Positions 3 through 30,308 of a stretch of DNA of 64,000 bases are shown piece by piece. Positions within the stretch are counted from its first letter, which is position 1. Each line of letters starts with the position of its first letter. Source of the DNA: Candidatus Borrarchaeum weybense (lineage in GTDB: Archaea; Asgardarchaeota; Sifarchaeia; Borrarchaeales; Borrarchaeaceae); contig JAHQJS010000006.1 in assembly GCA_019057385.1 (NCBI GenBank), positions 645,038 to 709,037 on the forward strand, given 5' to 3'. The translations under genes were made by a program, and so were the position numbers. A model generated the notes under the pieces. That model worked only from the letters and a program-made list of their open reading frames with translations, did not search any database and was not told the origin of the DNA.

Positions 3-221
3 TTGAGAGAAAACGCGCCTACCGCGTTCACAGCACAAGAGTTAGCAATGGAGTTCAATGTTTCCGTGTCGCTAATGAGGAATATTTTAGTTCCACTTTT
101 CATGGATAACGATGAAATCGAACGCTTAAGTGAGAAACGCTTTTACAAGTATAAATGCGTTGAAAAAACGACAGAAGGACAAGAACCCGAAACACAAGAA
201 GAAGTAATCACGACTACTTAA
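3..221 (+). CDS. Winged-helix DNA-binding protein (probably 5' truncated by window edge)
   Basis: FTAQELAMEFNVSVSLMRNIL HTH pattern; stop codon lies inside the 215-224 motif copy. Confidence 0.55.
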   Translation: MRENAPTAFTAQELAMEFNVSVSLMRNILVPLFMDNDEIERLSEKRFYKYKCVEKTTEGQEPETQEEVITTT

Positions 222-496
222 GTACTGACGTAAGTTCCACCCGAAAGATAAGTTCGTGTGGAAATAGACGTATATCTTTTAGCACGTTCGCAGAAATAAT
301 ATTCTCCTTAGTTTTTATGGGCGAGTGGACTCATACCTAACTCCCTATTATTTCGACTGGAGACCTATTTTTTAGGTTTTGTGTATTACTTTTTAAGTAT
401 CAAGAACTAATCCCTTATTTTTTCTTTTTCTCATCGGTTGTTAATTGCATTTTGGGAGATCGTAGAGGAGAGAGGAGATAAGAGAGTAAAATAAGT

Positions 497-540
497 GAGG
501 GGCTTTTCCCATTGTGGGATTGGCTACTAAAATCAGGAGG
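497..540 (+). promoter_or_regulatory. Structured 5' leader, copy 1 of 3 (others 1625-1666 and 3562-3618)
   Basis: GAGGGGCTT - variable hairpin - ACTAA - CAGGAGG Shine-Dalgarno, directly before a start codon in all three copies. Confidence 0.6.
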
Positions 541-547
541 AAACGCT

Positions 548-838
548 ATGGCAACACAAATTGAAGTTCCAAAATCCATGAATATATGGATGCGTATAGA
601 CGTTGCGTGTTGTGCAGACTTAACGAAAGAAGAAAACAAGTGTGCAATGTGCGGAGAATCTGATAAACGTCTCGCGGTGTTCGAGTTTAGGACAACGAGG
701 CATCATGGACACATTGACGACAAAGGATCTTCCTGGAATATTCCTTCGAGGGGCTTAATCTGTGAAGGATGTTCTAACGAGATCGAAATAGAGATCGTAC
801 AAGTGCTCAAGAAGTATCTGTGGCAAAAGGAGGACTAA
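548..838 (+). CDS. Small zinc-finger protein
   Basis: CAMC...CEGC; SD CAGGAGG favours ATG 548 over the track start at 512. Confidence 0.65.
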   Translation: MATQIEVPKSMNIWMRIDVACCADLTKEENKCAMCGESDKRLAVFEFRTTRHHGHIDDKGSSWNIPSRGLICEGCSNEIEIEIVQVLKKYLWQKED

Positions 839-1389
839 CATTGCCGATGATGAGTTTTACTGAATACAAGTTGCTACCAAATCTACTGCTGAGAACGAAA
901 TGTCAAACCATTCGACCAGAACGACTGAAATGGGACTTACATGTGGGTGACTTGGTCCATAATTACTGGGAGGTACGTCGCTCACTTGAAACAAAAATAA
1001 TTGCCGGGATTCCACACTTCTTAGGATTCTCACAGATTACATCGTTGTCCAAAAAACGAATTAAAGACATGGATGATGAAATAGCGAAGAAAGATGGCTT
1101 CAGTTCTTACAATGAGATGATAGAGTGGTTTACAAACAAGTACAAAAGAAGGTTTGGCGAACTCTACTTATTAGACATCCCTTTTCAGATTATTGAGTTC
1201 GACTGGTTACACGTCTTCATACCTGAATGGCAACACTATACGAGAGAAAAAATCTGGGAACTAAGACGCAAACACGTCAAGAAGAATAAGAAAGGCGGAG
1301 GCTACGTCTTTGTAGAAGAACCTACGCTGGAGGTCAAGATCAACAAAAGACCCACGCCATATAGCGGCGGCTACCCCATTCCGTTTTAA
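820..1389 (+). CDS. ASCH/PUA-like domain protein
   Basis: KCQTIR, VGD and DEIAKKDGF motifs typical of ASCH. Confidence 0.75.
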   Translation: MAKGGLTLPMMSFTEYKLLPNLLLRTKCQTIRPERLKWDLHVGDLVHNYWEVRRSLETKIIAGIPHFLGFSQITSLSKKRIKDMDDEIAKKDGFSSYNEMIEWFTNKYKRRFGELYLLDIPFQIIEFDWLHVFIPEWQHYTREKIWELRRKHVKKNKKGGGYVFVEEPTLEVKINKRPTPYSGGYPIPF

Positions 1390-1402
1390 AGTGGTGAACA
1401 CA

Positions 1403-1564
1403 ATGCGACAAAGACGAATAACCGAACTATATGCCACCCCTATCCAAGTAAAAGAACCATGCCCCATTTGTGGGGGTCGATTCATACCTGGATTTGCAAT
1501 GTGGTGGCCTCATACCCCACAAATACTGATTTGTACCTCGTGTTGTTTCATAAAGAACCTATAA
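1403..1564 (+). CDS. 53-aa zinc-finger protein (not in ORF track)
   Basis: MRQRRITELYATPIQVKEPCPICGG...ICTSC; GGTGA SD upstream, T-tract downstream. Confidence 0.6.
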   Translation: MRQRRITELYATPIQVKEPCPICGGRFIPGFAMWWPHTPQILICTSCCFIKNL

Positions 1565-1676
1565 TCCCTTTTTTTATTTTTTAATGAATATTCGTGACTA
1601 CTTAGGTAATTTCGTTCATTTTTAGAGGGGCTTCTTCTCCAGGAAGCTACTAATTTTCCCAGGAGGAAAATACACG

Positions 1677-3488
1677 GTGACTAAGATAAACGAGTCATTT
1701 AGACAAACGATTCGTAGGGCTATAAAAATAAAAATAGAGACAGAGAAAATCGACAAAGAAGAAGGCTTACCACAGACATTTGACAAAGTGCCTTACAAGT
1801 TCTTAAATGCGCTTTTAGACCTAAAACTGCCACCAGACCGACCTTTCATCTGGAAAGAAAACGAATCGAATTTACATTTGTACCCTTTCTTATTTGAGAA
1901 AGGACAGTTATCCATTGCTGGCCTTCGATGTCTGACGCTTATTGATGAATACATGAACTGTAAGACCGTACAGAAACCTAAAAAACTCAGAACTATTAAA
2001 ACAAGTCTTTTTTATAATATGTTCAAACCACTACTAAGTAGATTTGGACTGCTAACACCAAAACGGCTGACTACGAAGTGGACAGAAAATCAGTACAGTG
2101 CTGTGACGGGTACACTGAGCCAATTAGTTATGCTTGGTGCTTTAGGGATCAACTATGATGACATGATGATTAATAAGGACACCGACGTTAAATACCGCCT
2201 AGACTATCCTATATTTCGAGAGAAATACAAGGATAACGTAGTAAAGTACACTAAATTAACGGGGAGAAATTTTTGTGTGCTTACACCAGAGCACCTACAG
2301 AAGCCTTCGACACGGCAACCATTCAAAATACCAATAGTCTTCCTAGAAAAACGCGGTCAGTATGAAAACGCAATCAGCATAAGCAATCTATTCTCAGTCA
2401 GCATGTTTGCTACCAAAGGCATGTCACCGACCACTTTCCTGTGTCATCTTAATGAATACTTAGATGACCAGTATGACCATGTGCTGTTAGTAATTAGTGA
2501 CTACGACCCCAGTGGTGAAAAAGACATACCAAATTCATTGAAAAAACGCGCTGAAATTCTTGAAATGCCTATCAGTGAAGTTAAAAGGATAGGTATTTTC
2601 AGAGATCAAATAAGCGATAAAGAATATCTGGAAAAGAGAGTTCTTATACCTCTCTCAAAGAAAAAATGGATAGAAGAAAAAGCCATTGAGACTGAAGAAA
2701 TTGTTGAAAATAAGAAAACACATCTCTATGGGTACGGACTTCAAATGGATGCACTAGGCGAAGAACGGTTGCGGAAAATAGCAGCCGAAGGAGTACAAGA
2801 ATATTTATCACAGGAACTATATGTAGACTTCATTAAACAACAACAAAGAGATGAATTTAATGCATGGGAAGTTGTAAGTGGCATCGCAACATATATTTAC
2901 AACGTCGATCCTGTCATAGTTAATTTTGAAAGACAAATCACAGGAATCAAACACAGAATCTACAATCTGACAGACGAAAAAGATGAGAAGACATTAGATA
3001 TTAGATTAGCAGTGGAGAGCATAGAAGACGAACTACAACGACTTAAAGATGATTATTACTCAAAAATAGAACGTCTTAATGAACTTGCAGATGAAAGAAC
3101 TGCTGATTTAACTGTAGACATAGAAGTGCTGCGTGAAAAGAAACAAGAAAGAGTAGTGATGTCTGAAGAACATAAATACGACCTACAGGAACGTCTAAAA
3201 ATGATTGTAAAAACGCTTGCAAATATAGACGGGTATGATGACCGTATATGTGTAAAATCTATGGTAGAACAGGCTGTCAAAGACAATGAAACATTTAATC
3301 ATGGTCTTAAAATCGTAGACTTATATCCAAAACTAAAAAGTGACATTTCCAGAGACTTCAATCATCCTAACATCTGTCCATTTTGTAATACCGTATCTAA
3401 CTGTTATCTTGTGATAGACGGAAAACAAATACGGTATTGTGAAGACTGTGATACTGAAATCATAAAACTTAGTGATCTGTTAGCCTAA
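1677..3488 (+). CDS. TOPRIM-domain protein (Topo VI-A/Spo11/DUF2399-like) with coiled coil and C-terminal zinc ribbon
   Basis: VFLEK, ATKG, SDYDPSG and MDAL motifs; CPFC...CEDC at C-terminus. Confidence 0.75.
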   Translation: MTKINESFRQTIRRAIKIKIETEKIDKEEGLPQTFDKVPYKFLNALLDLKLPPDRPFIWKENESNLHLYPFLFEKGQLSIAGLRCLTLIDEYMNCKTVQKPKKLRTIKTSLFYNMFKPLLSRFGLLTPKRLTTKWTENQYSAVTGTLSQLVMLGALGINYDDMMINKDTDVKYRLDYPIFREKYKDNVVKYTKLTGRNFCVLTPEHLQKPSTRQPFKIPIVFLEKRGQYENAISISNLFSVSMFATKGMSPTTFLCHLNEYLDDQYDHVLLVISDYDPSGEKDIPNSLKKRAEILEMPISEVKRIGIFRDQISDKEYLEKRVLIPLSKKKWIEEKAIETEEIVENKKTHLYGYGLQMDALGEERLRKIAAEGVQEYLSQELYVDFIKQQQRDEFNAWEVVSGIATYIYNVDPVIVNFERQITGIKHRIYNLTDEKDEKTLDIRLAVESIEDELQRLKDDYYSKIERLNELADERTADLTVDIEVLREKKQERVVMSEEHKYDLQERLKMIVKTLANIDGYDDRICVKSMVEQAVKDNETFNHGLKIVDLYPKLKSDISRDFNHPNICPFCNTVSNCYLVIDGKQIRYCEDCDTEIIKLSDLLA

Positions 3489-3624
3489 GTACACAGATCA
3501 CATTTTGTATTTCCTTCTTTTTTTCCATATCTAACTACCTAAGTATTTTTGATTATTTTTGGAGGGGCTTATCTCCTGCTCTACAATTACAGGAGAAGGT
3601 CACTAATCTCCCAGGAGGAATACT

Positions 3625-3987
3625 ATGATCGTATGTGATGGCTGTGATGGCGAAATAGACATCACAGTTGAAAGATTCGTAGAAGAACTACAACCTACAG
3701 GCGAAGGAGAAAAAATGTGGCATGACCATTGTTATATCAAAGTTAAACCGAAAGCAAAACGAGGTAATATCATGCTTGTCAGAGATTATAGATTAAAATG
3801 GAGACAAATAGAACTTTGTACCAAAGAAAAGGAAGGATACTTCCCTTTATGGGCATCTCCTACACTTATGGGTATTGCAAAGCGATTACATAAATTAGCA
3901 GGATATACATGGCTAACAACTGAAAAATTTATAGAAACTGCGCTAATAGAAGGCTTGACATATTTCAAAAATAAATATGCTCAATAA
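3625..3987 (+). CDS. Hypothetical protein with N-terminal zinc finger
   Basis: CDGC...HDHC; strong SD. Confidence 0.6.
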   Translation: MIVCDGCDGEIDITVERFVEELQPTGEGEKMWHDHCYIKVKPKAKRGNIMLVRDYRLKWRQIELCTKEKEGYFPLWASPTLMGIAKRLHKLAGYTWLTTEKFIETALIEGLTYFKNKYAQ

Positions 3988-4134
3988 AACTTTCTTCTTT
4001 CATCAATAGAAGTCAAATTGACTTCTACTATGAAATCCTCAATTTTTTTTAGTGGATGTTCGTAAGTACCTAAGTAGTCGGAAAGCAATTGAGTTTTTAA
4101 AGTAAAAGAAAATATTAGTATACGGTGAGTCTCT

Positions 4135-4404
4135 ATGGAATTTGGATTTATTGTAGGTCTGTCTTATGCCGCTAAATACGTGCTAAAATATGCAATAACC
4201 AATCTTTTAAATACAGGCTTCAAAAGAAGAAATATTAAGCGCATATCTAGATTGAGTGACAAGAAAGTCTCAAAAGCTCTACAGAAATTAAAAGAGTATG
4301 GTCTAATCACATATGATCGCGGAACAAAAGAATGGTATCTTAGTGACACTGTAAGAATTGGTTCCGATATAATTCTCTCTAAACTTGTGGATATCACTCT
4401 TTAA
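4135..4404 (+). CDS. Winged-helix regulator (TrmB-like)
   Basis: ISRLSDKKVSKALQKLKEYGLI; bounded by motif copies at 4067 and 4446. Confidence 0.65.
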   Translation: MEFGFIVGLSYAAKYVLKYAITNLLNTGFKRRNIKRISRLSDKKVSKALQKLKEYGLITYDRGTKEWYLSDTVRIGSDIILSKLVDITL

Positions 4405-4489
4405 AACGAGAGCAGTGTTCCACGCTTTCCACTATCATTCAAAAGTACCTAAGTAGTCAGGAATAAAGTTTTAAAAAAATGAAGTGGAG

Positions 4490-5326
4490 TTAGGTATAAT
4501 CTCCTAAATTAACGAGTGTTTTTGATTTTCCCTGAAGGATTGAAAGTACTGTTTCTATGATTTCTGTGTCTTTGTAGGATTTCTTGACATATCTGTTAAA
4601 AACCGACGCCACTACTCTTGGATCTAACTCAAAGAAATACTCCACAAATGCCGTAAAGTATTTCCTTTCGGCATTACGATATCCTGAAATTCCAAATTCC
4701 TCAGCAAATTCTAACCATACTTGGCGGCCACTAAGCTTGTATTTGACGGCATACGTCCTAATGAGATTCTGAATTATGTAAGTATGCTGCGAGGTGAATT
4801 TTTGCTCGCCTTTGAGGTATTCAATCTGCTGATCGAGTTTCTTTTGAGTCTCTTGAATCTGAACAAACATGGTGCTAAACTTCTGTAAAAGAGGATTGCC
4901 TTTTAAAACCGCAGCGATATTCTCCGTAACTTGTGTGAGAACCTGGTTCTGTAGTTTGGTTACATCGTCTTGTGTTATTATCCTATGTTCACCAGTTCTA
5001 ACTTTGCTGATGTGTTCCATAATCCTGTTCATTTCAGTATTGTTCTTCAAAGCACGTACATAGAGCCTTAGTTGGTCAAGTGCTTCTGGAACTTTCAAAA
5101 ATAAACGTCTACGCCCTACTGAATTTTTCTTACTTTTCAAGAATTTTTTTATAAAAGGTGCGAAGATTTTCTTCTTTTTGTATAAATGGTTGGTGATTGT
5201 TTTATAGGGTACATTGGTATGGTACGCTATGGTTTCTAAACACCAAAACTCACCTTCAGGAGTCTGTATGCGTTTGTATTTCTTCCCATCAAGATCAAGG
5301 ATTTCTACTTTCTTTACTTCGTCCAT
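4490..5326 (-). CDS. Phage antirepressor-like protein (ORF6C-like C-terminus)
   Basis: Central coiled coil then VWLEFAEEFGISGYRNAERKYF resembling ORF6C. Confidence 0.55.
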   Translation of the reverse strand: MDEVKKVEILDLDGKKYKRIQTPEGEFWCLETIAYHTNVPYKTITNHLYKKKKIFAPFIKKFLKSKKNSVGRRRLFLKVPEALDQLRLYVRALKNNTEMNRIMEHISKVRTGEHRIITQDDVTKLQNQVLTQVTENIAAVLKGNPLLQKFSTMFVQIQETQKKLDQQIEYLKGEQKFTSQHTYIIQNLIRTYAVKYKLSGRQVWLEFAEEFGISGYRNAERKYFTAFVEYFFELDPRVVASVFNRYVKKSYKDTEIIETVLSILQGKSKTLVNLGDYT

Positions 5327-5332
5327 ATATGG

Positions 5333-5731
5333 TCACTTCCATTTCTCTAAATCTCCGCTGAATTCCAAACTCGTCCAATCTAACCAATCCCTGAGTTTTT
5401 GATGTCTCTTAGCGATATGCGTTTCACATTTAATGAACTTGCTTCCGTACCGATCCTCAGCGCATGGTTCATTACAGCCTGGTTCTCTGCAAATATCGGG
5501 CATGTTTAACAAGGCGAATCCTATTGTAATATTGACCAAGCAGTCTTGATTGTCACACTCATATTGACATACGTTGTAAAATGTGTCAATAAGTTCTTCT
5601 ACAGACATACCGAGTAATATTGCGTCCAGTAGCCTCTCGGGGTGTATATCCCAGTCTTCGAGATTTTTTACTACAGAGTCAATTACGTCAATCATTGACT
5701 CACCTTCAACTTCATTAAACCTAAAACTCAA
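5333..5731 (-). CDS. Cys-rich hypothetical protein
   Basis: ORF track; probable real start at the internal ATG after AGGTGA. Confidence 0.55.
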   Translation of the reverse strand: MSFRFNEVEGESMIDVIDSVVKNLEDWDIHPERLLDAILLGMSVEELIDTFYNVCQYECDNQDCLVNITIGFALLNMPDICREPGCNEPCAEDRYGSKFIKCETHIAKRHQKLRDWLDWTSLEFSGDLEKWK

Positions 5732-5846
5732 GTCCTAAAACTTGGTTACTAATTTATACAAGAAAACTATATAAACTTGGTGTCATTAGTGAGAAATATG
5801 GGAACAGTGCCACTATTTACACGGATAATAGAGTAGGTGAGTTCAG

Positions 5847-6005
5847 ATGGCAAAAGCATACACAAACAAAATTGGTGCTAAAAAGCGTGTTAGTTTACCA
5901 GATGAAGTCATGGACGCATTAGAGGCTAAAATAGGCGATACACTTGTGTTTGAAGTCTATGAAAATAATGAAGTAAAAATCAGGGTTCTAAAAGTCGAAG
6001 GATAA
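5847..6005 (+). CDS. AbrB/MazE/SpoVT family DNA-binding protein (not in ORF track)
   Basis: MAKAYTNKIGAKKRVSLPDEVMDALEAKIGDTLVFEV...; AGGTGA SD. Confidence 0.8.
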   Translation: MAKAYTNKIGAKKRVSLPDEVMDALEAKIGDTLVFEVYENNEVKIRVLKVEG

Positions 6006-6049
6006 GTGGTGCTTTCCCACTATGAACCAATACCCATGGAAGTGAGTGA

Positions 6050-6232
6050 ATGGCTCAAAAAAGTGAGAAAGTTTCACCTACAGACAACTGTAGGGTATGT
6101 GGAAATAAAAACGTTTCTCCCTTAGGTCTGTGTGAGGAATGTCACGACATCTTTACTGTAGTTGTCGTTGACTGCATACAGAACTATCAGGACGCCAAAC
6201 AAAATGCGAAGAGGGTTATGGCTTCACTGTAA
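6050..6232 (+). CDS. Small zinc-finger protein
   Basis: CRVC...CEEC. Confidence 0.55.
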   Translation: MAQKSEKVSPTDNCRVCGNKNVSPLGLCEECHDIFTVVVVDCIQNYQDAKQNAKRVMASL

Positions 6233-6259
6233 CTTTCTTCCGTTCTTTTTTTGATTGAT

Positions 6260-6313
6260 TGTTCGTGACTACTTAGGTAGTTAGGATGTTCGTGACTACT
6301 TAGGTAGTTAGGA
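6260..6313. repeat. Perfect 27-bp tandem duplication containing the motif
   Basis: tgttcgtgactacttaggtagttagga x2. Confidence 0.95.
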
Positions 6314-6410
6314 TTAGTGATTTCAAGAATTTGAAAATTTTGAAACTACTATCTAAGTAGAGGGATAAACTTATTTTGGAAATCCTGTGATATTTATAGG
6401 GGATGATTAG

Positions 6411-7595
6411 ATGCACCCCAGAACTAATGCTTCTGTTTTGACATTAATTGTTTTTGTGATCATTTCAGTGGTTATTCTCGTCTTAACTTTGAGTGTTGGG
6501 TTGTCTCTACCTCAGATTTTCGATATATTTCCTAAACTCATCTCTATATTTGCGTTTGTACTTGCATTTCTCGCCTTATATTATGCGCACTTAAAGGGGC
6601 CCGATATTGATCTGATTAACCAAAAAGAAATAAAATTCGAGTTAGTTGATATAAGTGATGACCCTAAAGAAATTCGGAACAAAAGCAATATTACAAGATC
6701 ATTACGGTTACAGCCTTTTACCTTAATTTTTGTTAATGAAGGAAGTAGAACAGGAGTTATTAAAAGATTAAAACTAACTTTCACACAAAGCAATGAGTTT
6801 AGTTCGTTCTATGTTAAGTTAGACCCTTCGTTTAAGAACCCTGATGTATCAGAAACTAAAACACCATTCCCTATTAAAAATGGCGAAGTTCGTCTTGTAA
6901 ACCTGGCGACTCGTATAGAAATTAAGAACTTTGATTCAGTTAAAGAAATAAATCTACCGAACAATATTGAAGATGCGGATGTTATCGCATTTATCAAGGA
7001 AGTAAATACGGCTAATAAAAGAAACCTTGAAGCTTTTATTAGTTTTCTCAGACGTCGTATGACTTTAGGGAGATGTTCTCTTCAGTGGAGTACTACGAAT
7101 CGTGAAGAAGAGACTGAATTAGATGTGACAGGCACCTATAATCAGATAATTGAGTGGTATAATAGTGCACTTCAAAAATATGACGAATTGCCCCCATCAG
7201 TTATTAAAAGAATAGACGATGTGAAAGAATTTCTAAAATCTCGTATCAGTACGTTAGAAAATAATTTGGACTATATTCGGGATTTTGAGAAGAGTCCACC
7301 TCTTGATCTACTTTTCAATAAACATAGATCCGAGGGATATTATCTCGTTTTAAAGTGGAAAAACAAATTAATAGGCGATCTTGAGAGCCTTAATACGTAT
7401 TTTATAAAATTTAATGATAAGCGAAGCGAATATTTTAGACGAGGACGTGACGAAATAATGAAACGACACCTTTTCAAAGATCTAGAAGAACAAAAAAACG
7501 AATTAGAGCCACAAATAAATGAGATACTGAAAGAATTAAAAGAAACTCACGATGCAATCCTTCACTCATTAAAACAATTGGAAATTAAAAAATAA
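6411..7595 (+). CDS. Membrane-anchored hypothetical protein
   Basis: Two N-terminal hydrophobic helices, helical C-terminus. Confidence 0.7.
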   Translation: MHPRTNASVLTLIVFVIISVVILVLTLSVGLSLPQIFDIFPKLISIFAFVLAFLALYYAHLKGPDIDLINQKEIKFELVDISDDPKEIRNKSNITRSLRLQPFTLIFVNEGSRTGVIKRLKLTFTQSNEFSSFYVKLDPSFKNPDVSETKTPFPIKNGEVRLVNLATRIEIKNFDSVKEINLPNNIEDADVIAFIKEVNTANKRNLEAFISFLRRRMTLGRCSLQWSTTNREEETELDVTGTYNQIIEWYNSALQKYDELPPSVIKRIDDVKEFLKSRISTLENNLDYIRDFEKSPPLDLLFNKHRSEGYYLVLKWKNKLIGDLESLNTYFIKFNDKRSEYFRRGRDEIMKRHLFKDLEEQKNELEPQINEILKELKETHDAILHSLKQLEIKK

Positions 7596-7791
7596 AACGT
7601 CTAAAGCGGAGATATTACACATAACATTGTAGAACAATTAATTCTAGAGGCACATAAAACCAATTTGAAAATTTTGAATTTGGTCGTTTTCTTACACAAA
7701 AAAGAGGTGTAAGGGGATTGTAAGAGAAAAGAGGTGTATGGCAAACAAAATCCTTCCTATGTACAAAACCCTTATTTTTAAGGGGATGTTC

Positions 7792-8076
7792 TCACCCATG
7801 CCTTTGTGTACGATCCTCATTTACTCCATGCTGGGAATGGTTCACTTCTGAGGAATAATGCAAAAAAGTTTTCTGCAGGTCTTCTTTTGAATACCACCCG
7901 GATTCGTAGGCCTCCACAGCTATATGGAGTAACTCAACTTTGGCGATGTTGTTTTCGTGATTGCCTTGTTCGTCAACATTATTCCAATAGAGAGAGAAAC
8001 AATCCTTAATGGTAGAAAGAGGGACTCCTCCTTGTAGGAATTTATTCAATTCGTTACATAATTCCGAATAGTGCAT
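7792..8076 (-). CDS. Hypothetical protein
   Basis: 94-aa ORF with GGGAG SD. Confidence 0.5.
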   Translation of the reverse strand: MHYSELCNELNKFLQGGVPLSTIKDCFSLYWNNVDEQGNHENNIAKVELLHIAVEAYESGWYSKEDLQKTFLHYSSEVNHSQHGVNEDRTQRHG

Positions 8077-8352
8077 GTCGTTCTCCCTTCCTCCTATGTT
8101 TCCAGTCTACGAATGTGTAGACCACGATCTAGTGCCCCAGCTTCGAGTGCGAATAGCAACTCTCTACCTGTCGACCATTACAACTGCTACCACTAAAAAG
8201 TCTTGAAAGTATGATAGTTCTTCTTTGAAAGAGTGTCTTAACTTCAGAGATTCTGTTTCGTCGTATGAACGATGTATTTACTTATTTATGTAATAGAACA
8301 CGCTTGTCGGTGTCTTAAATAGTTTGTAGAAAAATTCTACGCATATTCTAAG

Positions 8353-20705: not shown

Positions 20706-20720
20706 AGGAGGCGTGATCGC

Positions 20721-21173: not shown

Positions 21174-21194
21174 TGAGGAAGGAGGTGACTTAAT

Positions 21195-21970: not shown

Positions 21971-22846
21971 TCAAAAGTAAATAAATAAATCTCCCGTTTT
22001 TTCGAAAAGTACGAGGTTAAAAAACATCAACCAGATATTAATGATTGCTAAAAATCTGATATAAATATTTATCACTGAAAAATATAACATTATTAGTATG
22101 AGACCTGTTAAGATGAGGCAAGTCAATATTAAAACTACATTTAGGATCGTTATCGTTCTGGCTAATTTTGGCTTCTTAATTGGTTCCTTATAGATATCAA
22201 GTCGATTCATATAATATTTGCTCCTTTTTTCAAAATAAAACCAGCACACCAAAAATGGTGATATAAGATCAAATAAAAAAATTAATAATACATTGAATTC
22301 TAATGGGGAAAAAGTCACAAGTGCATAGTAGTACGGAAATGTAATAAAGAAGGCGATGATAAAGCCAGAAAATGACATAACTGCTATAAATGTGCAAGAC
22401 ATTGCCATAGATTCTACGTTTGATAGTTTGTAGTTACAAATTTTAGAAATCTTTCTAACTATAGTGTCTTTCCATATCCTAACTAAGAAGATAATGGGAA
22501 TCATAAAAATGACCATTATTATCACGGAGAAGAATCTAACGATTAAAGCCATAGATAAAGTGGTAATAGACATAATAATGCCCAGAATCAAATATAACCA
22601 CCCTCTACATCTCTCAACAACGGAATCTCCTAATCCTCCTTTAATATATCCTACATAGAATGGAATAATCCAACCCAAGAAAAATAAAGGTAAGAAATAT
22701 ATCAGGGCACCAACTCCGCCAATAAACACTTGTATGAGTGCAAAAATGATAGTTATGGACGAGGAAAGAAATAACAACGCTGAATCGAGTTTTCCAATCC
22801 TTAACTTAACATCAAGATAATGTTTCAGGTCACTTTTGTCATTCAT
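21971..22846 (-). CDS. Multi-pass membrane protein
   Basis: About eight hydrophobic segments. Confidence 0.7.
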   Translation of the reverse strand: MNDKSDLKHYLDVKLRIGKLDSALLFLSSSITIIFALIQVFIGGVGALIYFLPLFFLGWIIPFYVGYIKGGLGDSVVERCRGWLYLILGIIMSITTLSMALIVRFFSVIIMVIFMIPIIFLVRIWKDTIVRKISKICNYKLSNVESMAMSCTFIAVMSFSGFIIAFFITFPYYYALVTFSPLEFNVLLIFLFDLISPFLVCWFYFEKRSKYYMNRLDIYKEPIKKPKLARTITILNVVLILTCLILTGLILIMLYFSVINIYIRFLAIINIWLMFFNLVLFEKTGDLFIYF

Positions 22847-23097
22847 TTCTTTTCACATTCTCTAAATCTTTATCCAAATAATTATTCAATTTCATCTATT
22901 AAACATACTACATTGTGAAAGGCGCAAAAATAAAAGTAATGCAGTCTCCTTGTGGCGTTGGTAGTTGTGGGGATTCACATTTTTATGATGAGGGCGATGA
23001 TTTCTTCGAGGATCCCTCTGACTTTTAGTAACATTCTCTTTTATTTTTTTAGATATCAAAGGACGTTAGTTTTTTATCTCTCGCATCATATACCAGA

Positions 23098-23445
23098 TTG
23101 CAGTATCCAGAGTTGATCAACGAAGAAACAGGAATATTTCTAGCAATCAGAACGGGAGTATTTAGTTCATTTTTAGTAGAAAATATTGGTGGTAATTACG
23201 TATTTTCTCATTCTGGAAGATTAAAGACAAAATTTACAGGAGATATAAGCTTATCATCGGAAAAGATTCACATAGTTTATTGCTTCGAAAGAGTATCAGA
23301 TTTATTTTGGTAGGCAAAATAAAATAAAGTAATTGAGTGCAATCAAAAAGTTTTAGAGATCAATCCTGAGGATAAAAAAGCAAAGATTATTTTAAAGCGA
23401 TTGAGAGTTATGTAAGAGTGGTTGAACTCGATCCTAAGTTTGAAC
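23098..23445 (+). pseudogene. Degraded TPR-repeat gene fragments
   Basis: YCFERV, KVLEINPEDKKA and RVVELDPKF segments broken by stops and frame changes. Confidence 0.4.
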
Positions 23446-23452
23446 GAGGGGA

Positions 23453-24403
23453 TTGAACATAAAGAATGAAACAATAACAATCATTTTAAAGAAATTAGCA
23501 GACTTGTATCCTAATTCTATGTTCAAGGAACAATTGAAACAATATATTTCTCTTTCAGACAGTGATTTGTCAAGATATATCCATTACATTGCGGAAAAGG
23601 GCTATATTAGAAAATCAAATGGTCCTCTTTTCAAAATAACCGCTGCTGGAATTCGGTATATTGGCGAAGAAATAGTTGATAATGAAACTCTTATGATCAT
23701 ACTTGAACAACTAAACAAGAATTATCCTAATTACGTAGAGAATATATTTTTTCAAGAATTCTTAGATATGGATGATTTTTCCTCAAGACGAATATTTTCA
23801 TATCTAGAAGAAACTGGCCTTGTTGAAATAAACTGGTTTGCAGGAAAAAGATTCGACATTAAGATCACTAGTTATGGTATTGATCAACTAGTTCCTGAAA
23901 AAAATAAACTTGCGAAAGAAGATACAATTTCCATGCCAAATGAGATAGAGATGGCGCTTGAGACCCCTTTTACGAATATAACTAAAGTTTCTGAATTAAT
24001 GCAAAAACTCAAAGGAGATATCCTTTTAATTGAGAAACACTTTGATCAAAAAGGCTTTAAGTTTGTAAAAAAACTCAATCCCTTGTTTGTAAGTAATGTG
24101 AAAATCTTAATGAGTACAGATCATTTAAGTAGAGATTTTAAGGATATATTTAAAGCCTTTAAAACCGAGATGGACAATAAAGGAATAACTGTAGAACTTA
24201 GAATTCTTGATGAAAAGGATGTTGAAAGAATACATGATAGATATATTTTAAGTGAAGAAAATTGTTATAATATTCCGCCGATGAATATTATTCATAAAAA
24301 GCTAGGAGACATCAAAAGAATCCAAGATGTTGAAAGTAAAAAAGCCTATTTTAAGAAATGTTGGGCTAGAGCAACTAATATTATAAAAATTAGCACAAAA
24401 TGA
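23453..24403 (+). CDS. Tandem winged-helix protein with PLD-like (HDR motif) C-terminal domain
   Basis: Two repeats ending KITAAGI / KITSYGI; IHDRYIL. Confidence 0.6.
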   Translation: MNIKNETITIILKKLADLYPNSMFKEQLKQYISLSDSDLSRYIHYIAEKGYIRKSNGPLFKITAAGIRYIGEEIVDNETLMIILEQLNKNYPNYVENIFFQEFLDMDDFSSRRIFSYLEETGLVEINWFAGKRFDIKITSYGIDQLVPEKNKLAKEDTISMPNEIEMALETPFTNITKVSELMQKLKGDILLIEKHFDQKGFKFVKKLNPLFVSNVKILMSTDHLSRDFKDIFKAFKTEMDNKGITVELRILDEKDVERIHDRYILSEENCYNIPPMNIIHKKLGDIKRIQDVESKKAYFKKCWARATNIIKISTK

Positions 24404-24421
24404 AGCCACTGTTGAATAGAA

Positions 24422-24979
24422 TCACTTGCCATACTCCTCGTTCCAACCCTTTTCTTTTGCTTCCTGAATTGAAAGTTCATTATCTACTTCAAGAAGAGTT
24501 GTTGCTAATTTTAGAAAAGTATCCATAAATTTCTTGTCATGTGCAGTCTCATAAGTTAGACCATCCGAAGAAGTGTACCGATCCTTGCTTACGATATGTG
24601 TGTATTCATGGGCAAAAAGGATCTGTGCACCAAGATCAATCAATGCTTTTATGGTATTTTTCCATTTGGGAAATCTTAATACAAAGAATATTTGTTTTTT
24701 CTTAGTAGTTTTATAGCGTTGAATTGTCATGTCTGCTCTGATATTCTCATCCTTGACGTTTTCTTGCTGATTAAGAACCAAGAAAAAAGGAGTTTTAATA
24801 TTAAACACCTTTCTTAGTCGATTTAGAGCAGTAAGAACATAATGAAACATTTGATCTTGGCAAATATCACATACGGTAAGATCAGAGCCGTTATTGGGCT
24901 TGTAATATATGTGGACCTTGTAACTGTCACATTTGAAAATATAATCATCTTCCCATTCTTTAGGCTCAGGTACTTTCAT
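24422..24979 (-). CDS. HEXXH zinc metalloprotease-like protein
   Basis: AHEYTH...AHDKKF. Confidence 0.7.
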   Translation of the reverse strand: MKVPEPKEWEDDYIFKCDSYKVHIYYKPNNGSDLTVCDICQDQMFHYVLTALNRLRKVFNIKTPFFLVLNQQENVKDENIRADMTIQRYKTTKKKQIFFVLRFPKWKNTIKALIDLGAQILFAHEYTHIVSKDRYTSSDGLTYETAHDKKFMDTFLKLATTLLEVDNELSIQEAKEKGWNEEYGK

Positions 24980-25404
24980 CCTTTAGCCTCCTGCAACAGG
25001 GAAATTTTACGAGATTGACCTGATTCTTTTTTATAACAGTTTGCTAACGCCTCTAAGGATCGTGCAATTCTCTTTCGTGCGGGCCAATCAATTTCTCCTC
25101 TGAGTGTTTCTTCGGCGAGTCTTAAACCGTATCCGCCAAAGATTAAACGTATCAGAGGGATGATTTCTCTCTGATGAACGCCATGTTTTTTTAGATCATC
25201 AAAGATTTTCCCTGCTTTAGGTGTCAAATCTTCTGTTTCTACATGATCGAACTCTTCAATGGCACAAACGGTCATACAACAATGCACACACCGCCCCCAC
25301 TCACATATATTCTCTTTTTCGAAATATCCATCACAAACATTGCATTGTTTCCATTCGTCGGGGTCTAATTGAATATATTTTGTTTTTTCCGTCATTTTAA
25401 ACAC
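24976..25404 (-). CDS. Cys-rich hypothetical protein
   Basis: CNVC...C...CVHCC. Confidence 0.6.
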   Translation of the reverse strand: MFKMTEKTKYIQLDPDEWKQCNVCDGYFEKENICEWGRCVHCCMTVCAIEEFDHVETEDLTPKAGKIFDDLKKHGVHQREIIPLIRLIFGGYGLRLAEETLRGEIDWPARKRIARSLEALANCYKKESGQSRKISLLQEAKG

Positions 25405-25435
25405 CCTTAATCATATCAAACATCATTTCAAGTAA

Positions 25436-25642
25436 TTACATTGTCAATTTTTTTTGCTGATGCTTTCCTTTTGATGTTTCTTTAAGTTCAGAATATAATC
25501 TCGCATATAGATCTGGGTTAATACAATCATATTCAGCCATGCTATCAGCTACCTCTAATAACAGGCGTTCAAGTCGTTTAACACGATCTTCTATTTTCAT
25601 AATATCAACTCCGTCAAAGTCTCTCACTTCATAGGAAACCAT
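25436..25642 (-). CDS. Hypothetical protein
   Basis: ORF track. Confidence 0.45.
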   Translation of the reverse strand: MVSYEVRDFDGVDIMKIEDRVKRLERLLLEVADSMAEYDCINPDLYARLYSELKETSKGKHQQKKLTM

Positions 25643-25788
25643 TCTAAACTCTCATCAAGTTTTTTATCTTCAGCAATCTCTTTAGAGATTATAAACATCT
25701 GATAAATAAATCTCTTTTTTCCCTTAATCGGTTGGTTGTTATTTGCGCTCAATAGTAAAAGAATCCATTTTTCAATGGGTTTAATCAT
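25624..25788 (-). pseudogene. Truncated Panacea/winged-helix-like gene (54 aa)
   Basis: MIKPIEKWILLLLSANNNQPIKGKKRFIYQMFIISKE...WFP then stop. Confidence 0.4.
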
Positions 25789-25853
25789 TTTACATCAAAA
25801 CATCCAATTACGTCAATGGTTAATTTCATACACAATAACTTGTAATTAGTGTT

Positions 25854-26273
25854 TTAGCACGCCTCTCCAACAAGATGTTTAGCCAATTTTTTGTTTAAAC
25901 CAATTTTTGTTAACTTTCGATACGTTCTACTTCCAATATTGCCTTTTCTTTCTTTTTTACAAAGTTTCATGGCTTCGAGTAATTCCCTTCTTTCCCTCTC
26001 CCATACTTTGAGATCTGCTTTTGCTTTGGTTAGTATCTCATCCGCTTGCTTTTTTGCATCCCTGATAATTTTTCTCGCTCGTTTTTGAGCTTCTTCTAAT
26101 TGTGCACGTGCCTTTTGAAGTGCTTTCATATTTTCTTTTAATAATTGATTGTATTCTTCGATGAGTTCATCCGCTCCGTCCTTTTCGTACTGTTCACGAT
26201 CTAAGATTTCTTTAACTTGCTTTTTAGCCTCAGTAATTAATGTTGCATGATGTTTTTGGTTTTTCATTCTCAT
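25854..26273 (-). CDS. Coiled-coil protein
   Basis: A/E/K heptads; ATG directly abuts the motif at 26274. Confidence 0.6.
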   Translation of the reverse strand: MRMKNQKHHATLITEAKKQVKEILDREQYEKDGADELIEEYNQLLKENMKALQKARAQLEEAQKRARKIIRDAKKQADEILTKAKADLKVWERERRELLEAMKLCKKERKGNIGSRTYRKLTKIGLNKKLAKHLVGEAC

Positions 26274-26423
26274 TACCTAAGTAGTTTTAATTTTGGTGGG
26301 ATAGGAGACGCCTAATCCATTCAGGACTTTTATAAAAATGACCAGTCTGTTACAAGATGCAGTTTTTTGATCGCGGCATTCATCTCTGTATTCTCGTGTC
26401 TCCTATCCTTTCACCACAATTAA

Positions 26424-26603
26424 TTAGTGGTCCGTTAACCCCATTGCAATTCCTTCTTCTACTACTGCGTTGTCAACGTACAATTTTATTGCTTCGATAC
26501 CCGCTTTTTTCAAATGACCACGCTTTTTTCCGAACTTGTGTATAGCAACGTCTCGAAACTCATTTTCTAAATCGTCTGGAATTTCAACAGTGATTTTTCC
26601 CAT
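26424..26603 (-). CDS. Ribbon-helix-helix regulator (not in ORF track)
   Basis: MGKITVEIPDDLENEFRDVAIHKFGKKRGHLKKAGIEAIKLYV. Confidence 0.8.
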   Translation of the reverse strand: MGKITVEIPDDLENEFRDVAIHKFGKKRGHLKKAGIEAIKLYVDNAVVEEGIAMGLTDH

Positions 26604-26721
26604 TGGTTACACCTTATAAGATAATCGAATATCTTATATACCATCTACCAATATATAATTTATGGTACTCAATTTTTAGGTATTATAACATGAGTACTTA
26701 AGTAATTAGGAAGGTGAAAGA

Positions 26722-27609
26722 TTGGCAAAACTCATTGAGTTTTTTGACAAAACACCAGAAGGGATTGTTTGTCCGCACTTCTGGATGTTGAAATTTGCCC
26801 GAGGGTGCAGATATGGTTGTTCGTACTGTTATCTCGCCCTTACTTATCGAATACAGGGCGTCAAGCCACATCTGTATTCTTGGAATCAACTAAAAGACGA
26901 CTTTTGTAATTTTTGTGAAAAAGTAGAATATCCTACTCTTCTCAATGCAGGGGAATTGACTGACTCTTTCTTGATGGAAAACACGGATAATCCGTTTTCA
27001 ACATTTATTGTGCCACTTTTTGAGTCACAGAACGTACATAAAATACTTTTCTTGACGAAATCAAATAACCTTCGCAATTTTCGGTTTTTATTTGAGCAAG
27101 GCAACGTGACACAAACAATTCTTTCCTGGAGTGTCAATATTCCGAAGGTGGCCCATCAATGGGAAAAAGGCGCACCAAGTCCTATAAGACGAATACATGC
27201 ATTTGGCAACGCCACTTATTGTATTCCAGGATCGACACGAATACGAATAGATCCCATGCTTCCTGTAGAAAATTGGAAAACGAAATATGAGGATTTACTA
27301 AAGAATATTTTTGACTTTGGCTTTCCTGAGAGAATAACTCTTGGAACTCTTCGCTATTTTCCTTCGCTTCCCTCAAGGTTGAAGAAGTTAGAACGAGACA
27401 CTTCCTTATTTGACCTCTTTCCAGCAGAACGCTGTGCTGAGGATGGGAGGTATCGCTTAACGGATCGAGAAGAAATCTATCGTCACATGATCCGCTTATT
27501 AGAAGAAAAATTTGGCTATTCTCGATATGCACTTTGTAAGGAGACTCAGGACGTATGGGATAATCTGGGTCTTGATTCTAAGAGATGTCTGTGTAACTGT
27601 CAACTATAA
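26722..27609 (+). CDS. Spore photoproduct lyase-like radical SAM protein
   Basis: CRYGCSYCY, GELTDS, FLTKS, RIDP, LGTLR. Confidence 0.8.
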   Translation: MAKLIEFFDKTPEGIVCPHFWMLKFARGCRYGCSYCYLALTYRIQGVKPHLYSWNQLKDDFCNFCEKVEYPTLLNAGELTDSFLMENTDNPFSTFIVPLFESQNVHKILFLTKSNNLRNFRFLFEQGNVTQTILSWSVNIPKVAHQWEKGAPSPIRRIHAFGNATYCIPGSTRIRIDPMLPVENWKTKYEDLLKNIFDFGFPERITLGTLRYFPSLPSRLKKLERDTSLFDLFPAERCAEDGRYRLTDREEIYRHMIRLLEEKFGYSRYALCKETQDVWDNLGLDSKRCLCNCQL

Positions 27610-27627
27610 TTTGAGGAGGGTTAAGAA

Positions 27628-28026
27628 ATAACAAGCCGTGAAATTGAAAAGAAAATCTATCCGCTAACCATAGACCGCGATTTGATTCCTTTAAACCAAC
27701 TAGAGGTAATTTTAGGGGCTAAAATTCGTGAATTAGACTACATACGGATCTGCCCCAACTGTGAGAATGTCTATTTTACGTGTAAAAACTGCTCTTATGA
27801 TTCTCCGATAGTGTGTCGAGGTTATTATTTATCGCGTAGATCGGTGGAAGAAATACCGAAAAAATATGATGTTACTCGATGTCGAGACTGCCGCACAATT
27901 CATCTTCTAAGACATACAGAGGTCATAAATTTTGAAGACGCACTCTTTAAAGAGATACCATTTGAGCAATTTTGTGGGCTATGCAGTGAACACTTTGCTT
28001 ACGAGGACGATGAGGAGGAGGGATAA
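27628..28026 (+). CDS. Multi-zinc-finger protein, probable ATA start
   Basis: Several CxxC pairs; GAGGAGG SD then ATA, in frame with the track ORF at 27682. Confidence 0.6.
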   Translation: MTSREIEKKIYPLTIDRDLIPLNQLEVILGAKIRELDYIRICPNCENVYFTCKNCSYDSPIVCRGYYLSRRSVEEIPKKYDVTRCRDCRTIHLLRHTEVINFEDALFKEIPFEQFCGLCSEHFAYEDDEEEG

Positions 28027-28028
28027 AC

Positions 28029-28514
28029 ATTCCAAGAACTTCTGTACTTATTGGTGAAGAAGGCATCGAAATTGCCAAAGAAAAACTAGCAGAACTAAAG
28101 ATCTTTGCAACCAATGGTACGGGGACGTGGGGTCAGGCAGACATAGTTGCATCCTTTAACGAACGTCCTCTCTATATCGAAGTTAAATATAGTCGTTTGT
28201 GGAACTACTACGTTCATAACGGGAAAAAATGGAAGCGTTTAGCAAATATCCACATCACTAAAGTACAATTAGAGGGGCTACAAGAGGCAGAACGGAATGG
28301 AATTTTTTCGATATTCCTCTTTCTTTTAAAAACACAGCGCAAAGTTATTACAAAGTTTTTGTTCCCTTCAGAAGTCCTCTTGAGTTCCAATGATAAGAAA
28401 GAATATGGCAAAGTAGCCATAACAGAAATTCTTGATATAGGACGCCCGTTAAGAGATTTACCTCTTCTTTTGTCAATGAAGGAAACAGACATAATACAGA
28501 AGGCGATCAGGTAA
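28029..28514 (+). CDS. Hjc-like PD-(D/E)XK nuclease, probable ATT (or ATA 28023) start
   Basis: GEEG...ADIVA...YIEVK lies upstream of and in frame with the track ORF at 28197; in-frame stop at 28011. Confidence 0.7.
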   Translation: MPRTSVLIGEEGIEIAKEKLAELKIFATNGTGTWGQADIVASFNERPLYIEVKYSRLWNYYVHNGKKWKRLANIHITKVQLEGLQEAERNGIFSIFLFLLKTQRKVITKFLFPSEVLLSSNDKKEYGKVAITEILDIGRPLRDLPLLLSMKETDIIQKAIR

Positions 28515-28515
28515 A

Positions 28516-29526
28516 ATGAACCAATTTTGGCGGTTTTACGAATATGCAGCATTAGCAGCAGTTGCACAATCGGTAGGACCTATTTTTACTAATGTGAGAT
28601 TCGGCGATTCTACAAGTCCTGAATATGACGGACTTTCCCTTGATGGTCAAACTGTTGTAGAAGTGAAATCGTATCCTCTTTCCAGAGATGATTGTAAAAA
28701 ACTTGTAGAAAAGACAAACAAGCACTTTGAAAAACTGATTATAATTGCGCCAGGATTCAAAAACAAATATCTTGAGAAGGGACAGGATATTTGGATTGAA
28801 TATATGACCTTTACGACTGAAAATTTTCCTTCCCGGCTACAACAATTTTACCAGGAATGGGAACCACAACTACCTAAGTATTTTGAAACACGTTTAGGGT
28901 GGCATCATTTTTCATACGTCATGTCCAGCGGTAGATTCAGAAACCAAATTGACAAGAGAATTTCAAACACAGAAAAATTGAAGCGTGAAGTCACCAAAAG
29001 AGTCGTTTTTCCTCTTAGAATTTTTGTTTCGATCTCAAAGTGGCGAGATCCAAAGCAGTTATTTTTTAGAAAAAATTCAAACACTCTCTTAGATTCGATA
29101 TTAGCTTTTGATATTGATTGTAGCGATCTGCATGTGCCATGTCTCCTGACTCAAAGTGGTATATGCGAAATTGGACTAGACCATGTAAAACACGAAACGA
29201 TGAAGTTATTTGATTTTTGCGAGGATAAATTAAGTTTAACTGACTTTATGATTTATTTTAGTGGAAGAAAAGGCTTTCATGTTTATTTTTGCGATTATAA
29301 TTCTTCAAAATCATTCAAAAAAGAACTTGAGTTCCGAAAAGACCTCGTTGAGAAATTAAAAGAAAACAACATTCGAGCAGATAGTTCAATCACAGAACAC
29401 CCCAAAGCGATGGTTGGGCTCCCAAGTTCTTTACATGGCTACACGATGAGGGAAATCTGCCTTGTCGGTAGAAGCCGAAAGAGGATAACCTCTTTTCGTC
29501 CACCTAAGCCTTTCAATAGGCGATGA
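28516..29526 (+). CDS. Fusion of restriction-endonuclease-like domain and AEP primase (PriS-like)
   Basis: N-terminal EYDG...VVEVKS...IIIAPGF; C-terminal AFDID and FSGRKGFH. Confidence 0.8.
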   Translation: MNQFWRFYEYAALAAVAQSVGPIFTNVRFGDSTSPEYDGLSLDGQTVVEVKSYPLSRDDCKKLVEKTNKHFEKLIIIAPGFKNKYLEKGQDIWIEYMTFTTENFPSRLQQFYQEWEPQLPKYFETRLGWHHFSYVMSSGRFRNQIDKRISNTEKLKREVTKRVVFPLRIFVSISKWRDPKQLFFRKNSNTLLDSILAFDIDCSDLHVPCLLTQSGICEIGLDHVKHETMKLFDFCEDKLSLTDFMIYFSGRKGFHVYFCDYNSSKSFKKELEFRKDLVEKLKENNIRADSSITEHPKAMVGLPSSLHGYTMREICLVGRSRKRITSFRPPKPFNRR

Positions 29527-29706
29527 GGACCTAATATCGTGCGTTACGGGAATTCTATAGTGTGATGATCGTGGTGGAGTGAGCAGAATCCCGTAATACG
29601 ACGACTGAAAGGTGATGAGGAATTGTATTTTACAAATGGTATCTCAGTCGTGATGATTGCGGTGGAATGAGCGGAGTGCCATAATAAGAGAAAAAGGGGT
29701 GATAAG

Positions 29707-30054
29707 TTGGGAAGGAAGAAAATAAAGATCACAGATGAGGAATTAGAACTAGAATCACAAGAATACACGTTAGAAGATTACAAAGAAACATTACATAGAG
29801 GGCAACTGTGTTTTGCAGTATTTAATGTCTGTCTTACAATCGTTACCATTGGAGTTTTATTACTAACATTAAACCTTGAGTACATAGCTCTACTAAGTTG
29901 TATTAATTTCTTCTTTGCATTCGTGTTATTTTTATCTCTCTTTGAATATCGCAAGAACGAAAGTATCGAAAGCAGTTACACCAAATTCTTAAAACGTAGA
30001 GCATATCGACGTAGACAAAATAAAAATGTTCCTCGCGGATGGATCCGCCTGTAA
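29707..30054 (+). CDS. Two-TM membrane protein
   Basis: Two hydrophobic helices, basic tail. Confidence 0.6.
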   Translation: MGRKKIKITDEELELESQEYTLEDYKETLHRGQLCFAVFNVCLTIVTIGVLLLTLNLEYIALLSCINFFFAFVLFLSLFEYRKNESIESSYTKFLKRRAYRRRQNKNVPRGWIRL

Positions 30055-30308
30055 CATACCTTTTTCTTTCTTTTTTTGAAAACTTAATATTAGTACTTAG
30101 GTAATGAGGATCAATTAGTAAAAGATATAAAGTAGTTCTTGGTTCTATAGAAGACTGTACAATGGTGATTGTTGTGACATCAGTTTTATCGACAAAAGAA
30201 GTCTCTGTCGAAAAAGGAAGAGAAGAGGAAAAGACGGTCTCTCAACTCGCTCTTGATGGTCTAAAATTAATTAAAGAATGTAAAGAAATCATCAAGTCGT
30301 AAATTCAC

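Follow-up and report, generated by a model that had tools for sequence, protein, structure and literature searches.

Palindromic operators dispersed over a mobile backbone, mostly in intergenic DNA and promoters, provide global co-regulation in IncP plasmids such as RK2, where 12 OB (KorB) and 7 OA (KorA) sites are bound by a ParB-family protein and a helix-turn-helix (HTH) protein, respectively. In cluster A mycobacteriophages (L5 gp71, the TipsytheTRex repressor), stoperators occur in 20 to 30-plus copies over a temperate element of ~50 kb; they are asymmetric 13-mers, bound by a monomer and oriented with transcription, that sit in promoters and in very short gaps between genes and often overlap stop or start codons, and through them one repressor silences the whole genome (PMC9283540). 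Repeated intergenic units are also known from T4-type phages, whose PeSL cassettes consist of sigma-70 promoters and terminator stem-loops, are confined to hyperplastic regions and shuffle modules through recombination between units, with the formation of mini-circles (PMC2839356, PMC4122927), and from the halovirus HF2, which has nine directional intergenic repeats of 29–58 bp with a B recognition element (BRE), TATA box and transcription start that are conserved in its relatives (PMC8707807). Here we describe a 64-kb stretch of DNA (the window) from the Asgard archaeon Candidatus Borrarchaeum weybense (assembly GCA_019057385.1), which contains part of an apparent integrated mobile element marked by 40 copies of a short dyad with the core TACYTARGTA. 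We propose that this dyad is probably a dispersed operator read by a regulator that the element itself encodes.

The window corresponds to C6:645038–709037 of a 4.18-Mb assembly (G000). The ilvC and radical-SAM genes that flank the element are 61.6 kb apart in this assembly versus 2.5 kb in a genome of the same genus (G004), so we interpret the element as a ~59-kb mobile element that was inserted in a strain-specific manner. An exact search found TACYTARGTA 18 times in the window, with all matches within 215–30103 and none in 30104–64000, while dinucleotide-preserving shuffles of the window gave a mean of 0.30 ± 0.58 copies and a maximum of 2. The 18 copies are divided into nine TACCTAAGTA, seven TACTTAGGTA and two TACTTAAGTA. 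Our recount agrees in number, split and absence from the host half with an earlier note on this window, in which every copy was correctly placed apart from one slip (26273 for 26274); the host, which that note had assumed to be a bacterium, is an Asgard archaeon. The genome-wide count that the note had proposed as a check bears out its expectation of a far lower density in the host: the whole assembly contains 48 copies, 40 of them within C6:617150–675131 and eight across the other 4.12 Mb. The 40 sites cover ~58 kb (window -27887 to 30103), the series beginning ~28 kb to the left of the window edge, and one of the upstream copies, 391 nt left of the window start, reads TACCTAGGTA. An extended 14-mer, ANTACYTARGTANT, is present 34 times in the genome, with 33 copies in the element and one in the host, which amounts to a ratio of ~2300 between its density in the element and that in the rest of the genome. 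In 399 other Asgard genomes searched, the motif occurred in at most six copies in each. A host factor ought to have targets in the host, so the reader of so element-specific a site is probably encoded by the element. Outside the element, TACYTARGTA was also rarer than a reversed control in most Asgard genomes searched (this genome and 40 related ones), with eight copies outside the element versus 43 genome-wide for the control in this genome and 1–2 versus 47–77 copies in several relatives; as the reversed control differs from TACYTARGTA in composition, this rarity may mean little.

We aligned the 40 sites and then handled them as 80 half-sites. TACYTARGTA was found to be the invariant core of a 26-bp dyad with the consensus WWYMTNAN-TACYT/ARGTA-NTNAKRWW (slash, dyad centre), whose conservation is strong over 14 bp and weak over 26 bp, so the 10 bp originally proposed as the site were too few. 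An A is present at position -2 in 73 of the 80 half-sites, and each arm independently fits the single half-site consensus. Mirrored arm positions were complementary in 140 cases versus 146 ± 7.7 in shuffled left/right pairings (P = 0.82). As arms with a fixed consensus and no covariation are the signature of a symmetric site for a DNA-binding protein, the alignment indicates such a predicted site rather than a selected RNA or DNA hairpin. Asymmetric cores showed no orientation bias, at 12:14 relative to the downstream gene and 15:16 relative to the strand, as expected for a dimer site. We rejected a hairpin, a cruciform, and a repetitive extragenic palindrome (REP) or miniature inverted-repeat transposable element (MITE), because the arms do not covary and no RAYT-like gene was found. 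We also rejected a target of restriction-modification (RM), because the motif is identical in two variants of the element that have different RM systems.

The placement of the sites links them to gene units. Thirty-seven of the 40 lie outside the interiors of open reading frames (ORFs; P = 4e-22 versus an intergenic fraction of 21%), and those that precede a gene end 0–131 nt from its start codon (median ~41 nt), except for one that lies 298 nt away. Three of the 40 are found between convergent genes, and three are inside genes, which encode a 1215-aa protein, an AAA ATPase and a primase. Core replication genes are separated by sites, as are accessory genes, and sites are clustered as a triple before the MCM gene and as a tandem double before the PCNA gene. 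In the plus-strand replication arm the same order recurs: stop codon, oligo-T, site, GGRGCT leader hairpin, ribosome-binding site and start. Both sides of the sites show an enrichment of oligo-T runs (upstream, 14/33; downstream, 11/33; background, 0.11), and TATA-like tracts are variably upstream or downstream of them. The positions after T-tracts, over stop codons (215, 21163, 21526) and beside start codons (21536, 26273) that the earlier note had pointed out were all verified. Within the replication arm, a GGRGCT...GGCTC leader hairpin stands ahead of most genes (L002 7300–7560 and 13300–13760; window 1620–1660 and 3560–3600), and two promoters of this arm have CACAAAATATATA in common, followed by tRNA-like sequence.

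Since many sites occupy short operon gaps, with a T-tract on one side and the GGRGCT leader hairpin or ribosome-binding site on the other, we considered that they might work at the RNA level, where polycistronic transcripts would contain them as a short hairpin or protein-binding motif that marks processing or masks the Shine-Dalgarno (SD)-like AGGA in the right arm. The arm consensus TTCCT...AGGAA does resemble an anti-SD/SD pair. However, the arms lack covariation, the core by itself yields a stem of only 3 bp, sites are also found between convergent genes and upstream of TATA-like boxes, and there is no preference of orientation relative to transcription, all of which makes an action in RNA very improbable.

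Taken together, the specificity for the element, the dyad without covariation, the placement at gene-unit boundaries that include those of core genes, and the lack of orientation bias suggest that the 26-bp dyad is a dispersed operator of an element-encoded global regulator, which would be a dimeric DNA-binding protein, and that the repeated units are also recombination hot spots. We give this reading a probability of roughly 55%. One element-encoded dimer that reads ~40 operators would bring about element-wide control, and in the likeliest mode gene units would be silenced or insulated while the element is integrated: sites that adjoin a TATA-like tract would occlude the promoter, and those inside operons would act as roadblocks to read-through. 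We infer silencing or insulation as the direction of control because many of the sites are found within genes, between convergent genes, or in gaps that leave no room for a promoter. The element resembles the stoperator systems in having many copies of one site that are confined to the element and sit in promoters and short intergenic gaps. Unlike a stoperator, the site is a dyad of evenly mixed orientation, the host is an archaeon with different transcription machinery, and the binder is only predicted. The HF2 repeats are similar in belonging to an archaeal mobile element and in being intergenic repeats tied to transcription units, whereas in the element a short dyad is repeated 40 times and its distance from TATA-like tracts varies.

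Several observations weigh against an operator. The core is asymmetric in 31 sites, TT in eight and CC in one, versus 19.4, 13.8 and 6.8 expected (P = 1.5e-4), and a plain homodimer model does not predict this excess of the asymmetric form. Conservation is uninterrupted across the dyad centre, an unusual feature for HTH dimers, and the distance to TATA-like tracts and T-tracts is not fixed, so that the sites follow no one promoter or terminator geometry. The ranking of the candidate binders is by context alone, none being singled out by evidence, and the MCM-related elements L171 and L173 have no analogous dispersed motif. With regard to the core, the simplest account is that the copies share a common descent and that transitions at the Y/R positions were later tolerated, which could explain the asymmetry. 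Host avoidance of CTAG was rejected as the cause of the scarce CC form, as CTAG depletion is mild (ratio 0.83). At site 16161, the core TACTTAGGTA is replaced by TACCTAAGTA in a sibling element (described below) through two substitutions, with the flanks kept. This flip of the core within a conserved 26-bp dyad suggests selection for, or conversion to, the mixed C/T form.

The gene content of the element was derived from Pfam scans of ~80 ORFs. Replication genes encode an MCM helicase, a second MCM-like ATPase, a fusion of PCNA with a C2H2 zinc finger, and an archaeo-eukaryotic primase small-subunit domain; further genes encode a Cdc48-like AAA ATPase and several small winged-helix (wHTH), HTH and AbrB-like proteins. 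No virion proteins were recognised by PHROGs among the large unknown proteins. The genes for small DNA-binding proteins adjoin sites, and the gene for an HxlR-like 110-aa protein (C6:618572–618904) starts 7 nt after a site. Other proteins that might bind the dyad are the 79-aa HTH protein (ORF ending at window 221), a pRN-like 162-aa protein (C6:632769–633257), an AbrB-like 52-aa protein (window 5847–6005), the PCNA-zinc-finger fusion, the serine recombinase and the integrase. The 89-aa wHTH protein listed in Table 1 has no homologues in 400 Asgard genomes and is thus as restricted as the motif. We infer that a protein binds the dyad, and that this protein is presumably to be sought among these candidates.

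The replication genes, together with the site clusters just upstream of MCM and PCNA, raise the question of whether the sites could instead be landing sites for a structural or segregation protein, such as a centromere-like or ParB/AspA-type partition system, a chromatin protein, or a loading mark for MCM or the PCNA-zinc-finger fusion. A dispersed palindrome that is specific to a self-replicating element would suit such a role, as would the element's set of two MCM-like proteins, a primase and an unusual PCNA that ends in a C2H2 finger. The two functions can coincide, IncP KorB being both a ParB protein and a global regulator, and like the KorB/KorA operators the sites are palindromic, dispersed over a mobile backbone and mostly intergenic. 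Unlike in RK2, no ParA or ParB family member was matched by Pfam among the ~80 element ORFs scanned, where small ORFans could escape detection, and the density of sites is ~3x higher here. A single C2H2 finger reads ~3 bp and not a 14-bp dyad, and the tight association with gene boundaries (37/40) would be unexpected for a purely structural mark. We consider a structural or segregation role to be quite unlikely. The earlier note had offered as its alternative a site for an element-encoded repressor or partition protein; a regulator fits more of the data than an integron- or shufflon-like system does. The densest cluster comprises three sites in 42 bp directly upstream of MCM (C6:634259–634300; L002:8259–8300), two of which overlap with an offset of 8 nt. 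The element PCNA, which has both the N and C domains and a C-terminal C2H2 zinc finger (C6:637871–638851; L002:11871–12851), is preceded by two tandem sites, and the fusion is kept in the sibling (L164:528–1508).

Contigs of four public runs were compared with window 11501–31500, which revealed a variant element in a second sample and more distant relatives in another study. The sibling is a 63.7-kb contig of a Candidatus Borrarchaeum sp. metagenome-assembled genome (MAG), of which 36.7 kb were rebuilt and aligned to the reference. No other variant is long: two further runs contain relatives of 90–96% identity as short contigs, and the sites kept there say little at 96% identity. All blocks aligned between the two variants are collinear, with no inversions (Table 1). 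Three block boundaries fall at or close to sites, namely 1608, which is the last base of site 1599, and 4043 and 18824, each 24 nt to the left of a site (4067 and 18848) at the T-tract or arm, and a fourth, 6286, falls between the tandem sites 6270 and 6297. Four of 10–11 breakpoints are thus within 25 nt of a site (P ~ 0.04–0.05 versus random placement in intergenic DNA). The boundaries at 5775, 5990, 7662, 8368, 12222 (189 nt) and 16250 (80 nt) are away from sites, and the RM swap has the motif at neither of its ends in the window. The two strongest paralogous similarities between flanks are one-sided and stop at the core: sites -2514 and 1599 have 38/40 matches on one side and 13/40 on the other, and sites 17521 and 18848 have 34/40 and 21/40, respectively. 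In addition, the right flank of the sibling's equivalent of site 1599 belongs to the flank family of site 6297. Since some boundaries fall at or close to sites and one-sided flank homology ends at the core, the sites, or short units with sites, are real joints of mosaic exchange, if not the only ones. The steps in identity between blocks (99, 88, 98, 92, 99%) look like ordinary recombination among diverged relatives.

These joints bear on the claim of the earlier note that the motif is the crossover site of a cassette-shuffling system. In its fullest form, the 26-bp dyads would belong to a dedicated cassette-exchange system in which the serine recombinase, perhaps with the VRR-NUC nuclease, or the integrase brings about excision, capture, inversion and reordering at the central TA, in the manner of an integron or shufflon without attC hairpins. 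Sites of hix/gix-type serine invertases have a 12-2-12 geometry of 26 bp, and the element dyad likewise has two ~12-bp half-sites around a central TA, as in invertase and resolvase crossover sites. As with integron attC, shufflon sfx and hix/gix, modules are delimited by short repeated sites and a variable segment has a recombinase gene next to it; here, a serine recombinase with the catalytic Ser motif directly adjoins the most variable segment. The nearly invariant core with variable arms, as if an identical overlap were needed for strand exchange, and the over-representation of the asymmetric core also speak for such a system, as do the three block boundaries at or 24 nt before sites, the paralogous flank homology that stops at the core, and a 1.3-kb module between two sites (17521 and 18848) that have a 44-bp repeat in common. 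However, 6–7 of the 10–11 breakpoints are away from sites, the insertion of a 394-aa ORFan gene is bounded by a different, 17-bp repeat, and the variants show no inversion, even though one half of the sites is inverted with respect to the other. Some sites separate core replication genes and three are intragenic, positions at which recombination would do damage. Serine-recombinase sites are usually best conserved at their outer positions, whereas the dyad is best conserved at its inner ones. No circles or inversion joints were found in the contigs of the four runs, in which rare forms cannot show. Unlike those of integron attC, the arms have no complementarity beyond chance and follow one fixed consensus, with no folded strands, and unlike in an integron array, genes are on both strands, sites extend over the whole 58 kb, there is no ordered promoterless array, and boundaries are not consistently at the core. 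A dedicated exchange system is in our view unlikely, though less so than the structural and RNA roles. What stands of the shuffling claim is an element-specific motif that marks gene-unit junctions and a replacement of modules in the sibling that occurs partly at sites; the expectation that breakpoints would coincide with the motif held for these four and failed for the remainder. Among the modules that the note had described, the wHTH gene and the RM block were found and the HIT pair gave a weak match, while its toxin-antitoxin (TA) pair had no Pfam support.

With a dispersed operator, the recombination signal would most simply be a by-product of the repeated unit, as in the PeSL cassettes: a unit repeated ~40 times would supply short homology through which modules could be exchanged, duplicated or lost. 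As with PeSLs, close relatives differ by indels and replacements with breakpoints at repeated intergenic units (here 1608, 4043, 6286 and 18824). Unlike PeSLs, the unit is a protein-type dyad without a selected stem-loop, and it is spread over core genes as well.

Table 1. Sites, selected genes and blocks of comparison with the sibling element in window coordinates (negative values, left of the window start)
Feature	Position	Strand	Context
Site TACTTAAGTA	215..224		overlaps stop codon of 79-aa HTH_11-like ORF, which ends inside the site
Site	1599..1608		98.7%-identity block common with sibling ends on its last base
Site	3536..3545		between 603-aa and 120-aa genes; within segment replaced in sibling
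Site	4067..4076		68 nt upstream of wHTH gene; sibling homology resumes 24 nt left, at T-tract
Site	4446..4455		between convergent genes, 42 nt past wHTH stop codon
Site	6270..6279		copy 1 of 27-bp tandem duplication; sibling has one copy
Site	6297..6306		copy 2 of 27-bp tandem duplication; 114 nt upstream of 394-aa ORFan
Site	12411..12420		right of RM block; RM-swap breakpoint 189 nt to left
Site	12882..12891		after T-tract; kept in 92%-identity block
Site	16161..16170		near-perfect 26-bp dyad (TTCCTTAG..CTTAGGAA); core flipped to TACCTAAGTA in sibling
Site	17521..17530		starts 44-bp direct repeat common with 18848; not in sibling's version of segment
Site	18848..18857		right breakpoint of replaced segment (homology resumes 18824); 62 nt after VRR-NUC stop codon
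Site	21163..21172		overlaps stop codon; 22 nt before next start codon
Site	21526..21535		overlaps stop codon, abuts next start codon
Site	26274..26283		divergent intergenic region; abuts start of minus-strand 139-aa gene
Site TACTTAAGTA	26695..26704		17 nt before SPL-like gene start, just downstream of TATA-like tract
Site	28871..28880		inside primase-like gene
Site (last)	30094..30103		convergent gap before integrase gene
Winged-helix protein, 89 aa, candidate binder	4135..4404	+	between two sites; identical in sibling
394-aa ORFan insertion	6330..7672	+	absent from sibling; flanked by 17-bp direct repeat ATTTGAAAATTTTGAA(T), not by the motif
VRR-NUC nuclease gene	18910..19203	-	overlaps end of recombinase gene
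Serine recombinase, 258 aa	19196..19972	-	catalytic Ser motif; adjoins most variable segment
Tyrosine integrase	30309..31484	-	right end of element
Tentative attR core AAACTATATTTT (12-bp direct repeat)	31546..31557		62 nt beyond integrase start; second copy at C6:617082, 68 nt outside first site
Block	-7693..1608		common with sibling, 98.7% identity
Segment	1609..4042		603-aa and 120-aa genes; sibling instead has HNH and M48-peptidase genes with own sites
Block	4043..5775		common with sibling, 99.0%
Segment	5776..5989		diverged from sibling, no alignment
Block	5990..6286		common with sibling, 88%
Segment	6286..7662		no counterpart in sibling
Block	7662..8368		common with sibling, 97.9%
Segment	8368..12222	+	type I-like RM module; sibling has MmeI-like 960-aa gene (L165:12860-16800)
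Block	12222..16250		common with sibling, 91.9%
Segment	16250..18824	-	HIT-like pair, site 17521, two unknown genes; sibling has 3.9 kb of other genes
Block	18824..29972		common with sibling, 99.2%

Almost nothing is known about regulation or gene exchange in Asgard mobile elements, and the element offers a clean and testable case, with a single short sequence repeated 40 times, only a few candidates for the binder, and a sibling with module swaps beside sites. Should one protein prove to read every site, the system would be the first case in an archaeal element of a global control circuit in the style of stoperators or KorB, and would offer a simple means of switching the element on and off. 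If a recombinase uses them, they would represent a new kind of gene-capture system, integron-like without attC hairpins and the first in archaea. A limited literature search found no example of an archaeal dispersed operator of such density, and no motif of this kind is mentioned in a study of Asgard mobile elements (PMC11529989).

Several further features of the element were noted. The 12-bp repeat AAACTATATTTT is tentatively regarded as the core of the attachment (att) sites; a 12-bp match is expected about once by chance, and support for the assignment comes from its position and from the empty site in G004. The 258-aa serine recombinase consists of a resolvase catalytic domain and a truncated 'Recombinase' domain, without zinc ribbon or coiled coil, and the recombinase/VRR-NUC pair (18910–19972) has ~94% nucleotide identity in the sibling, right beside the replaced segment. 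The RM module, which in the window comprises a methylase/HsdR-N fusion (N6_Mtase/HSDR_N) and an S subunit, is swapped at the same position between two otherwise 92–99% identical elements. The 394-aa ORFan has no homologues among 5.8 billion proteins. Its insertion starts with a degenerate site, TATCTAAGTA, and the flanking ATTTGAAAATTTTGAA(T) repeat lies 35–50 nt to the right of the motif; the insertion may be either a small integrative unit or the result of a repeat-mediated deletion in the sibling.

Searches for related elements gave no match by megablast of 25 kb against phage and plasmid collections and none by protein (MCM, AAA, primase) in IMG/VR. Patterns of paired sites, searched in genome DNA and viral contigs, and an 18-mer of arm plus core, searched in metagenome contigs, returned only tandem repeats or single chance matches. 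Among public sequencing runs, no RNA run was listed as containing the element. No host promoter model was obtained from upstream regions of tRNA genes, of which 17 were detected, many in arrays. A distant MCM-encoding element (L172, a 38-kb Logan contig of SRR13394437) contains ~60 copies of the 13-mer yTACA[C/G]GTGnAGAA in a locus of 21 kb. Nearly all of these copies are on the coding strand and many are intragenic, while some are immediately upstream of start codons, and GGTG might function there as a ribosome-binding site. We did not count this 13-mer as an analogue of the site, because it is strand-specific, often intragenic and partly placed over ribosome-binding sites. Its palindromic variants (TACACGTGTA) have a TAC-N4-GTA frame in common with the element site.

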